DNA of 4,677 nt. Origin: a virus (taxonomy: Monodnaviria; Loebvirae; Hofneiviricota; Faserviricetes; Tubulavirales; Inoviridae). The stretch lies in the IMG/VR virus record IMGVR_UViG_648276659_000011, one strand, 5' to 3'. Position 1 is the first letter of the stretch, and every line of letters begins with the position of its first letter. This document shows, in pieces, positions 3,191-4,571 of the stretch. The position numbers and the translations under genes were made by a program. Under the pieces are notes generated by a model. The model did no database searches. It was not told the DNA's origin and was given only the letters and a program-made list of their open reading frames with translations.

Positions 3191-3643
3191 ATGAGCAACA
3201 ACTTCAACAGTAATGGCTACCCGGAAGAAATGGCAGAAGACATAGACTTACAGCGGGCAGAAAGGATAAAAAAAGCGATCCTAAGCAAATTCACATACGA
3301 AAGGATGGAAGAACTGTCTGGCATCAACATTGGCACACTGAAACGGATCGCAAACGCACAGAGGGATGCGAAAATCAGTGAGCTGGAAAAAATTGCTGAA
3401 ATCACTCAGACAGACATATTTGAACTGATTTTTGGCTCCAGTAGCAGTGATATCTACGATTCCAGCAAACGCTTCTTTGAGACGAGAAGTAAAGATGCGG
3501 CTCAGGCGGCTCAATTCATCATCTACAATCTTCGTACCCTTGATGATGAGGACATCCTTTGTTTGGGGAGGGTTTCGAGTGCCTTGCAAACAGCAACAAC
3601 ATCAAGAAAATGGGATGAGCTTTTCGGGAAGAAGAAAGGCTGA
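3191..3643 (+). CDS. XRE/Cro-C1-type helix-turn-helix transcriptional regulator (candidate prophage repressor)
   Basis: 150 aa from the ATG at 3191, with RBS AGGA 6 nt upstream. HTH_XRE-like segment 'TYERMEELSGINIGTLKRIANAQRDAKISELEKIAEITQTDIFELI'. Divergent from the replication gene, as for rstR-rstA in CTXphi. The 3047 start in the ORF track would leave only 23 bp for the divergent promoters. Confidence 0.75.
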   Translation: MSNNFNSNGYPEEMAEDIDLQRAERIKKAILSKFTYERMEELSGINIGTLKRIANAQRDAKISELEKIAEITQTDIFELIFGSSSSDIYDSSKRFFETRSKDAAQAAQFIIYNLRTLDDEDILCLGRVSSALQTATTSRKWDELFGKKKG

Positions 3644-3689
3644 GTCTCAGAAATGAGACAAACGTGCAGTATTACCAACACTGCACGTT
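3644..3689 (+). promoter_or_regulatory. Two adjacent hairpins / inverted repeats downstream of the HTH gene
   Basis: GTCTCA-GAAA-TGAGAC (3644-3659; 6-bp stem, GNRA loop), then a perfect 10-bp inverted repeat AACGTGCAGT-N9-ACTGCACGTT (3661-3689). No T-tract directly after; TTTTT sits 14 nt downstream at 3703-3707. Confidence 0.45.
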
Positions 3690-3727
3690 CTGGATTGAGC
3701 GATTTTTAAACACCAGAAAAAGGGTAA

Positions 3728-4126
3728 ATGATGAACAAAACAGTGTATGTACCAAGCTACTTCCAGCCTATCTACAAAGAAGTAACCATCAAAGTTCCTA
3801 CCGGAAACACAAAACGATTCCTGGGTCTCATCGACATTGAAGAAAAAATCCGAAAAAGAGAAGTTATTCAGGATGGCTGGTCTGATTGCCAGATTGACGG
3901 GGAAAGACTCAATGAAGATGTTGGTCGAGCCATTAATAAACTTAATCGGGAAGGGTATGAGGTTATTTCAATAACCCCTGCTACCTCAGGAAGCTGGGCT
4001 TATAAATATAAACAAAACAGTATTCGTAATGGAAACGGTGATGGCAGTTATGGATATGGTTACGGTTATTCATACACCGAAGGCGTTATGATTCTGGCAA
4101 AGAAAATTGAGAAAGAGGACGTCTGA
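3728..4126 (+). CDS. Hypothetical soluble protein with a Gly-Tyr repeat; possible DUF4177-like core
   Basis: 132 aa, RBS AAGGG upstream. No TM segment or signal peptide. 'REGYEVISI...TEGVMILAKKIE' is reminiscent of DUF4177 proteins (from memory, weak). Low-complexity insert 'NGNGDGSYGYGYGYSYTEG' at 4028-4084. Stop lies 2 nt before the next start. Confidence 0.6.
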   Translation: MMNKTVYVPSYFQPIYKEVTIKVPTGNTKRFLGLIDIEEKIRKREVIQDGWSDCQIDGERLNEDVGRAINKLNREGYEVISITPATSGSWAYKYKQNSIRNGNGDGSYGYGYGYSYTEGVMILAKKIEKEDV

Positions 4127-4128
4127 TA

Positions 4129-4491
4129 ATGGATTTTATCCGTAAAACTTTGGGTGGATTAAAAGCAAGTTATTATATCCGTCACTTCGTTTTTGGTGCA
4201 TTAATTTCAACTTTCTTTATTTACATGTCAATGCAAAATCCTGGAGGGGTGAAGGTTGAAAATATAATTTTCTTTTTTATCAATGCGTTACTCTACCCTT
4301 ACGCAAGATTTGTATATGAGCAAATCATTGGGTTCATCATGGGTGAAAATGTCTTTTTCATCAACGTCATAGTGATGCTAACTGCCAAGATAATTACGAT
4401 GTGTTTATGCTGGATATTTTCAGTATTCATAGCGCCAGTTGGATTGATATATCTCTACTATTATCATTCAAAAGCTGATAAACAATTATAG
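4129..4491 (+). CDS. Small integral membrane protein resembling colicin E1-family pore-forming-colicin immunity proteins
   Basis: 120 aa with three or four hydrophobic helices. 'YYIRHFVFG' and 'LLYPYARFVYEQIIGF' parallel 'YYIKNILFG' and 'ILCPYSKYAIEYIAF' of the ColE1 immunity protein as I recall it. Strong RBS AGAGGA 9 nt upstream; translationally coupled to the upstream gene. Confidence 0.6.
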   Translation: MDFIRKTLGGLKASYYIRHFVFGALISTFFIYMSMQNPGGVKVENIIFFFINALLYPYARFVYEQIIGFIMGENVFFINVIVMLTAKIITMCLCWIFSVFIAPVGLIYLYYYHSKADKQL

Positions 4492-4502
4492 AGGAAAATA
4501 AT

Positions 4503-4571
4503 ATGAGCATGGAAACAGGGGTTGCTATTATTATCTTGCTTGTGATTGTTGGTAAACTTATAGGACTTTAA
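4503..4571 (+). CDS. Candidate small hydrophobic peptide (22 aa), below the ORF-track length cutoff
   Basis: ATG at 4503 preceded by GAGGA at 4491-4495 (7-nt spacing), overlapping the upstream stop. Translation MSMETGVAIIILLVIVGKLIGL is a single TM-like helix. Ends 10 nt before the att region. Confidence 0.35.
   Translation: MSMETGVAIIILLVIVGKLIGL

Follow-up and report, generated by a model that had tools for sequence, protein, structure and literature searches.

An exchangeable cargo slot in a dif-integrating filamentous prophage encodes a remote homologue of colicin E1 immunity proteins

The filamentous phages CUS-1 and Ypf provide Escherichia coli K1 and Yersinia pestis, respectively, with a modest fitness advantage in animals, and the two open reading frames (ORFs) that lie next to the attachment (att) site, beside an RstR-like regulator, differ between the two phages and have no known function (PMC4266046). 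Ypf has also been described in the literature with inverted XerCD sites. Independently, immunity genes against pore formers have been documented as orphans on mobile elements of E. coli, where they constitute the commonest orphan class (PMC12546727). Here we analyse a prophage of the CUS-1/Ypf type contained in a stretch of 4,677 nucleotides (IMG/VR record IMGVR_UViG_648276659_000011, hereafter the window), which is found in the chromosome of E. coli MS 196-1 at 100% identity. Between a conserved leader and the att region this prophage carries three small genes, the second of which encodes a 120-residue predicted membrane protein with remote homology to the immunity proteins of E1-type pore-forming colicins. 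We see roughly even chances that this protein acts as an orphan immunity protein against a pore-forming toxin and is conferred on the host by lysogenic conversion. The cargo comprises the following features.

3735–4575, plus strand: exchangeable cargo slot and moron hot spot, with the leader on one side and the att region on the other; limits set by blastn breakpoints
3728–4126, plus strand: 132-residue soluble, beta-rich protein with no signal peptide, member of an uncharacterised family
4129–4491, plus strand: 120-residue helical protein, predicted to reside in the inner membrane, remote homologue of the colicin E1 immunity protein
4503–4571, plus strand: 22-residue hydrophobic single-helix peptide, MSMETGVAIIILLVIVGKLIGL, placed for translational coupling to the 120-residue gene

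The 120-residue protein and colicin E1 immunity

The 120-residue protein had no significant match in Pfam, NCBIfam, PHROGs or PADLOC, and PF03526, the colicin E1 immunity family, was unmatched even at E-values up to 10. Because the sequence resembled colicin E1 immunity, we compared it with the immunity protein of plasmid ColE1 (ColE1 Imm) as the reference and with an alignment of nine PF03526 proteins as the family. BLASTP aligned the 120-residue protein to ColE1 Imm with 29% identity across 56 residues. A 38-member profile of its family matched ColE1 Imm with an hhalign probability of 95.3%, and the match to the nine-sequence alignment (95.6%, E-value 1.2e-8) ran from end to end over 93 of 113 columns. 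The motifs YY[IF][RK]..FG, LxPY[AS][RK][FY] and A[IP]PxGL are common to the family and to ColE1 Imm.

Since membrane proteins can yield spurious profile matches, shuffle controls were run. The real hhalign score of 50.7 compares with a maximum of 24.5 in 200 column shuffles, with a maximum of 19.7 in 200 shuffles restricted to blocks of 12 columns, by which helix positions are kept, and with 13.8 for the reversed alignment. As negative controls, two unrelated small membrane proteins reached probabilities of 0.35% (RexB of phage lambda) and 1.9% (the membrane protein of an alternative CUS cargo); the latter protein is ruled out as a relative of the 120-residue family. Weak matches to PF03526 were obtained with nine of 38 relatives of the protein (best E-value 0.012), and six of the 38 weakly matched PF17500, the colicin K immunity family (best E-value 0.0033). 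The UniRef name of a Xenorhabdus member is 'colicin transporter', and ColE1 Imm is labelled likewise by NCBI.

An AlphaFold2 model of the protein (mean predicted local distance difference test score, pLDDT, 82) places helices at residues 13–35, 43–71, 80–96 and 98–119, compatible with either four membrane passes or three with a kinked last helix. In size and helical architecture the predicted structure is compatible with E1-type immunity proteins, and a Foldseek search of the model against the PDB returned no match. At the level of sequence, the remote homology of the 120-residue protein to E1-type pore-forming-colicin immunity proteins is established. An earlier note on this DNA, made from the letters alone, had called the protein immunity-like, and the hhalign comparison bears this out. 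The one indication of an immunity activity is this remote homology, by which such an activity is suggested.

The prophage backbone and its exchangeable slot

All four co-oriented ORFs listed in the earlier note (150, 132, 120 and 22 residues) were found on the plus strand, and the first three coincide with identical RefSeq calls in MS 196-1. The coupled junctions are also as it described them. The stop codon TGA of the 132-residue gene (4124–4126) is followed by TA and then by the ATG of the 120-residue gene at 4129, leaving a gap of 2 nucleotides (nt); the sequence GAGGA at 4491–4495, a ribosome-binding site (RBS), overlaps the TAG stop codon of the 120-residue gene (4489–4491) by one base and precedes the ATG at 4503. 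Ratios of nonsynonymous to synonymous substitution rates (dN/dS) were calculated for the 132- and 120-residue genes across five lineages, with copies from E. coli, Pantoea, Pectobacterium and Photorhabdus, and ranged from 0.03 to 0.16, with dS saturated; the 120-residue gene alone gave 0.05–0.13. Both genes are under strong purifying selection and are real coding genes.

These values bear on the idea that the cargo ORFs are selectively neutral hitch-hikers. Such an explanation would suit a defective prophage copy and a cargo that is rare in E. coli, being present in 14 of 5426 complete genomes (12 with at least 99% identity and two with an 82% variant). It is nevertheless close to refuted by the selection analysis, and both protein families are conserved across phyla, while the exact cargo proteins occur on about 1000 contigs from E. 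coli, Salmonella, Yersinia enterocolitica and Klebsiella. We therefore regard neutrality as barely credible.

Outside the cargo, the window contains the following features.

Upstream part of the window, minus strand: inovirus genes for Zot, a DUF2523 protein, a 484-residue adsorption-protein-like ORF and the first 97 codons of a replication protein
3191–3643, plus strand: Xre/Cro-type helix–turn–helix (HTH) regulator of 150 residues, presumed repressor (allele A), backbone
3644–3734, plus strand: leader between repressor and cargo, with two hairpins (3644–3659 and 3661–3689), a T-run, an RBS and a start codon, backbone
4581–4608 (plus strand) and 4641–4674 (minus strand): att region with two inverted dif-like XerC/XerD sites and a short GC hairpin between them

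Pfam searches with the window proteins identified Zot (E-value 2e-26), DUF2523 (1e-19) and Phage_CRI, the N-terminus of the replication protein G2P (1e-23). The att site on the minus strand agrees with E. coli dif at 20 of 28 positions; its XerC arm is exact and its central region is longer than that of dif. Inverted dif-like sites around a hairpin are the folded-attP arrangement of CTX-type phages. With the core genes and the inverted dif-like sites both present, the window is a CUS-1/Ypf-type dif-integrating inovirus prophage, and the earlier placement of the genes in a filamentous prophage near its att site is correct, as the Zot, DUF2523 and G2P genes upstream, the inverted sites and the hipA/dif flank show. 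The att region was kept in all related prophages and remnants that we compared. Complete genomes have the prophage at the dif locus next to hipBA, often in tandem copies, and parts of this region are shared by 188 of the 5426 complete E. coli genomes.

This copy of the prophage is internally deleted and defective. In the stretch 1412–3023 the replication gene breaks off after approximately 97 codons and continues into the adsorption-protein-like ORF, and the genes for single-stranded DNA-binding and coat proteins of related prophages are lost. In MS 196-1 two copies of the defective element are arranged in tandem, one of them interrupted by IS1.

The boundaries of the cargo were obtained by blastn of the window against related loci (L002, L003, L004, L005 and L010–L012). 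In the avian pathogenic E. coli strain E19057 (L003), the regulator is 100% identical and the match to the window continues at 98.7% identity through 3734, where unrelated genes begin that extend to approximately 4580. Conversely, strain 82.0311 (L002) carries a regulator allele with 40% identity and matches the window at 82% from 3643 to the end, with the same cargo pair (protein identity 80% for the 132-residue and 82% for the 120-residue protein). CUS-1-like prophages (L004), in which the allele with 40% identity is also present, have only 3643–3734 and 4576–4677 in common with the window. As the same repressor occurs with other cargo and another repressor with the same cargo, the regulator, the leader and the att region (4576–4677) belong to the backbone and only 3735–4575 is exchangeable. 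The earlier note had treated all four genes as one cassette. This has to be corrected, as the HTH gene and the leader at 3644–3734 are backbone; its view that the genes are accessory and dispensable is supported, for the three downstream of the regulator, by the exchanges in E19057 and 82.0311. The cargo is a mosaic of three separable, independently mobile small genes. The GC content of the 120-residue gene is 33%, compared with 41–44% for the backbone. The regulator itself matches phrog_3557, a transcriptional regulator family, with an E-value of 1e-68, and HTH_3 weakly.

The leader is kept at 86–99% in CUS-like prophages irrespective of repressor allele or cargo, and it separates the co-oriented repressor and cargo by two conserved hairpins. 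Its predicted RNA fold has a free energy of −26.8 kcal/mol (z −3.6). Hairpin 2 does not vary, and pairing in hairpin 1 is preserved in Brenneria via two compensatory changes. This conserved backbone sequence also provides the first gene of the slot, whichever it is, with its RBS and start codon. The leader could act in termination or attenuation, could stabilise RNA or could be a signal in single-stranded DNA, for example a packaging site. Promoter and terminator scans of 2950–4677 gave counts at chance level and no convincing candidate.

Several other alleles of the slot (L003 9633–10444, L004 9090–10295 and L145 6401–7611) open with or include small membrane proteins, among them a 140-residue four-helix protein and a 249-residue protein with a C-terminal helix. 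One allele encodes the zinc-ribbon protein ECs_2282, with a weak match to Lar restriction alleviation. The commonest E. coli cargo consists of a 140-residue membrane protein, the zinc-binding protein ECs_2282 and a 159-residue protein. The cargo pair and a dif-like region were seen in Pectobacterium (L010 4993–5933) and on the Pantoea plasmid pAR24_B (L005 2592–3841), and no inovirus backbone gene was detected within the 3–5 kb of flanking sequence examined there. There the cargo appears to outlive the phage.

Distribution of the cargo families and competing explanations

The 120-residue family has no Pfam model of its own. An exhaustive profile search collected 534 clusters at 50% identity (E ≤ 0.001), nearly all of which are stand-alone proteins of 115–140 residues, usually encoded by a lone gene on a mobile element. 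Plasmids of many genera account for 93 records, including conjugative PromA and Xylella plasmids on which the gene is alone; in PromA plasmids it is placed between the primase and transfer genes. Members were also noted on Gram-positive plasmids of Bacillus cereus (pBC07-2, L156 1093–4363) and Clostridium perfringens (L157), with identities of 29–30% and E-values of 2e-8 and 3e-6. The family is present on 66 viral contigs. At 34 of 73 surveyed loci the gene directly follows a phrog_3412 gene in the position of a late regulator, with holin and endolysin genes downstream. The slot between late regulator and lysis genes is the classic moron slot. Deposited phage genomes yielded one distant match for the 120-residue protein, in Pseudomonas phage vB_PaeS-D14L, and none for the 132-residue protein; vB_PaeS-D14L has the same layout of a phrog_3412 gene followed by the family gene, with holin/endolysin downstream. 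In Xenorhabdus (L070), a different inovirus carries a membrane-protein gene with 59% identity.

Members of the family occur in three kinds of toxin locus: at a CdiA/ShlB locus of Variovorax, with an AHH nuclease toxin and putative immunity gene on six prophage contigs, and with a WXG100-type substrate of the type VII secretion system (T7SS) and DUF4176 on the B. cereus plasmid. The gene row on pBC07-2 is headed by a 277-residue protein with an N-terminal WXG100 domain and looks like a type VII secretion toxin–immunity array.

The 132-residue protein belongs to phrog_15841, a family of unknown function with 128 homologues from Enterobacterales to Bacteroidota. Residues S52, D57 and S87 are invariant, and the family has a motif GYGYGYSYTEG. 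The structure model is confident (pLDDT 81); it consists of long beta-hairpins and one helix and matches generic folds only. Assignment to DUF4177 (PF13783) was rejected, with a score of 16.7 bits compared with the cutoff of 25 bits; weak DUF4177 matches were obtained with eight of 40 relatives (best E-value 0.0036).

The earlier note had placed the soluble and the membrane protein in one module; the distribution does not sustain an obligate pair. A 132-residue family gene without a 120-residue family gene was found in 57 of 60 sampled species, most loci of the membrane family lack the 132-residue gene, and the CUS-like phage L145 has the 132-residue gene followed by unrelated genes. Among the 60 species-level loci, a membrane-protein gene adjoins the 132-residue gene only in Pectobacterium, Brenneria and Photorhabdus, and by blastn and tblastn these three loci are the same inovirus cargo or a remnant of it. 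Obligate pairing is rejected by these 60 loci together with 73 further ones. The 132-residue family has no conserved neighbour in the 60 loci (the largest neighbour cluster comprises four), and its genes are accessory and independent, occurring in variable regions, on integrative elements and in certain defence islands.

This distribution also decides largely against a producer–immunity pair, in which the 132-residue protein would be a bacteriocin-like toxin and the 120-residue protein its cognate immunity protein. Gene order (toxin, then immunity) and the 2-nt gap would fit, and a 66-residue DUF4177 protein, PEG 446, has been reported as antibacterial, from unpurified material (PMC11322243). 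The similarity to DUF4177 is, however, weak and below threshold, hhalign against PEG 446 gave 2%, upon which a PEG 446-like bacteriocin was rejected, and the 132-residue protein has neither a signal peptide nor receptor-binding or translocation domains. With 57 of 60 species lacking a 120-residue family gene, no conserved membrane neighbour and other partners in L145, we consider such a pair quite improbable.

At 32 of the 60 loci a co-oriented ORF of at least 60 residues starts no more than 300 bp downstream of the 132-residue family gene. Inspected by eye, some of these downstream partners are effector-like, with Rx4H HEPN-like motifs, a two-helix SLATT-like architecture or PD-(D/E)xK-like features, most of these calls being unverified. 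No homology was detectable among the partners. Downstream genes of note lie at L151/L152 (6001–7098), L153 (6001–7500) and L037 (6083–6712), in Aeromonas, Epilithonimonas and Marinomonas. In Aeromonas, a HEPN_RiboL-PSP gene lies 88 nt past the family gene, with Thoeris or an AAA_15 ATPase next in line. The family gene of Epilithonimonas has a protein kinase on one side and a HEPN-like/DUF87 block on the other; the downstream genes of Epilithonimonas and Marinomonas have an Rx4H motif, with additional weak HEPN-type matches in Epilithonimonas. In Castellaniella the gene resides in an integrase/TacAT island. In Alkalilimnicola (L063 5598–6128), the protein encoded downstream resembles by eye CbrC (colicin E2 tolerance, UPF0167), an unverified likeness that may be coincidence. 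The arrangements in Aeromonas, Epilithonimonas and Marinomonas may represent a sensor-plus-variable-effector pattern.

Such contexts are among the reasons to consider a superinfection-exclusion or anti-phage module, whose membrane protein would block channel formation or DNA entry by phages or plasmids, or would be an abortive-infection effector with the 132-residue protein as its sensor. The 120-residue family is almost confined to elements that would profit from exclusion (prophages, inoviruses and conjugative plasmids), the 132-residue family is sometimes found in defence islands (Aeromonas, Epilithonimonas, Castellaniella) and often has a close co-oriented partner, and in the window the soluble and membrane genes are tightly coupled 3′ of the repressor. 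On the other hand, a Pfam and PADLOC scan of 146 immediate neighbours of the 132-residue family returned mostly miscellaneous genes and few defence matches, and the partners themselves share no homology, with effector-like calls that are mostly unverified. The two genes are separable and mostly apart, and neither RexA nor RexB homology was found. PADLOC-DB 2.0 had no match for the 132-, 120- and 22-residue proteins and only weak HTH matches for the regulator, so that no defence system is recognised among the four proteins. Finally, the homology indicates an immunity protein rather than a killing effector. Taken together, we regard an exclusion module as possible but rather unlikely. In keeping with the earlier note, no described system matches the combination; PADLOC, NCBIfam and Pfam returned nothing significant.

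More speculatively, and in our estimation with a somewhat smaller likelihood, the locus could be an undescribed membrane-acting conflict module. The 132-residue protein would then be a portable sensor or adaptor with interchangeable effectors. These would be HEPN-type RNases in Aeromonas and Bacteroidota and two-helix membrane proteins at other loci, and in the window the ColE1 Imm-like protein with the 22-residue helix. Put more broadly, the ColE1 Imm superfamily would have been recruited by phages and plasmids of Gram-negative and Gram-positive bacteria against any channel-forming invader, including bacteriocins, conjugation pores and the channels through which phages inject DNA.

The 22-residue peptide has counterparts of 22–25 hydrophobic residues at the same position in five lineages, E. 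coli, Pectobacterium, Brenneria, Photorhabdus and Xenorhabdus (besides the window, in L002, L010, L011, L012 and Xenorhabdus L070). The ORF begins 2–12 nt past the 120-residue family gene, and its start codon and a purine-rich stretch upstream are kept; in Xenorhabdus it follows the membrane-protein gene with the 132-residue gene absent. As dN/dS ranges from 0.09 to 0.73 on very few sites, the evidence that this ORF is coding is moderate.

Size and hydrophobicity of the peptide resemble those of type I toxins. It could therefore be the membrane-depolarising toxin of an addiction module, which the ColE1 Imm-like protein neutralises and which stabilises the prophage or its remnant. Its constant position in five diverged lineages, even without the 132-residue gene, fits this scheme, as does the persistence of the cargo in the deleted prophage and at sites whose examined flanks show no phage backbone gene. 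However, such a peptide is lacking in 64 of the 73 membrane-family members that were surveyed, and for this reason the membrane protein must work without it. Moreover, in the Pantoea copy the peptide region is replaced by an unrelated 114-residue ORF and the 132/120 pair is retained, the constraint on the peptide sequence is weak, and no similarity of the peptide to known small toxins was found. We judge addiction to be improbable. Probably, the peptide is a small membrane partner of the 120-residue protein in the Enterobacterales/Morganellaceae lineage. Exclusion, addiction and a producer–immunity pair each conflict with at least one distribution result.

Proposed orphan immunity by lysogenic conversion, and related systems

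Orphan immunity is the reading that we favour, because it combines the homology to ColE1 Imm with the solitary occurrence of the family on mobile elements, its occasional toxin-locus contexts and the orphan pore-former immunity genes already documented in E. coli. According to this reading, the cargo would be expressed from the repressor side, and the 120-residue protein would form a three- or four-helix bundle in the inner membrane. Acting as ColE1 Imm does, it would attach to those helices of an incoming pore-forming or ionophoric toxin that have inserted into the membrane and would keep the channel from opening. The target might be a colicin-like bacteriocin or a contact-dependent, type VI secretion system or T7SS effector, and the lysogen would gain orphan immunity without making the toxin.

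Several points weigh against this proposal. The 120-residue protein of the window lies below every Pfam threshold and is not a member of PF03526 in the strict sense. No pore-forming toxin or colicin-like gene was found in the window or adjoining the approximately 140 family loci, and the polymorphic-toxin contexts are only three independent cases among these loci. Immunity proteins of the E1-type class are highly toxin-specific, so that the target cannot be predicted from the homology. The gene heads the late region in lambdoid prophages, and expression upon induction only might fit host protection poorly unless the gene has a promoter of its own. Finally, orphan immunity does not account for the tight coupling of the 132-residue gene, with its 2-nt gap, or for that of the peptide.

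If the 120-residue protein does confer orphan immunity, filamentous prophages could repay their host in the gut through protection against membrane-active toxins of competitors. One allele of the att-adjacent slot of CUS-1/Ypf phages, whose ORFs had no assigned function (PMC4266046), encodes a colicin E1 immunity homologue. A family of 534 clusters on phages and plasmids, from Proteobacteria to Firmicutes, is tied in this way to a classical immunity protein, and orphan immunity would thereby extend further than is known so far. Should the protein instead block the entry of phages or plasmids, this would be a new activity for the fold.

Among known systems, lambda rexA/rexB had been put forward in the earlier note as a parallel. 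The likeness holds for position, a soluble and a small polytopic membrane gene being situated downstream of, and co-oriented with, a prophage repressor. It does not extend to homology, as there is no sequence or profile similarity (hhalign 0.35% for RexB and 0.09% for RexA, on which Rex homology was rejected), and the genes described here are independent modules.

ColE1 Imm (Cei/ImmE1, PF03526), a helical inner-membrane protein, is similarly small (113 compared with 120 residues) and likewise encoded on a mobile element, and the 120-residue protein is predicted to share its helical membrane character. It differs in that the identity is approximately 29% and confined to half the length, in that its charged cytoplasmic loop corresponds to a hydrophobic helix in the 120-residue protein, and in that no colicin or lysis gene is adjacent here. 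Moreover, the 120-residue family is phage-borne in this case and spans Proteobacteria and Firmicutes.

The orphan immunity genes of E. coli plasmids share with our locus an immunity gene that resides on a mobile element without its toxin and is thought to protect against pore formers of competitors (PMC12546727). Those orphans were defined by >99% identity to known colicin immunity genes, whereas the 120-residue protein represents a remote family in a prophage slot. The morons of lambdoid phages, located between Q and the lysis genes (such as stx), occupy the slot that the 120-residue family holds at 34 of 73 loci; in the window, by contrast, the carrier is an inovirus and the slot is situated between repressor and att. 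Finally, YPO2271/YPO2272 of Ypf and orf1/orf1a of CUS-1 are variable ORFs that hold the position of the cargo in the same phage type, beside an RstR-like repressor and the dif junction. The gene content of the slot differs, as the commonest E. coli cargo shows, and the window pair is likened to YPO2271/YPO2272 by position.

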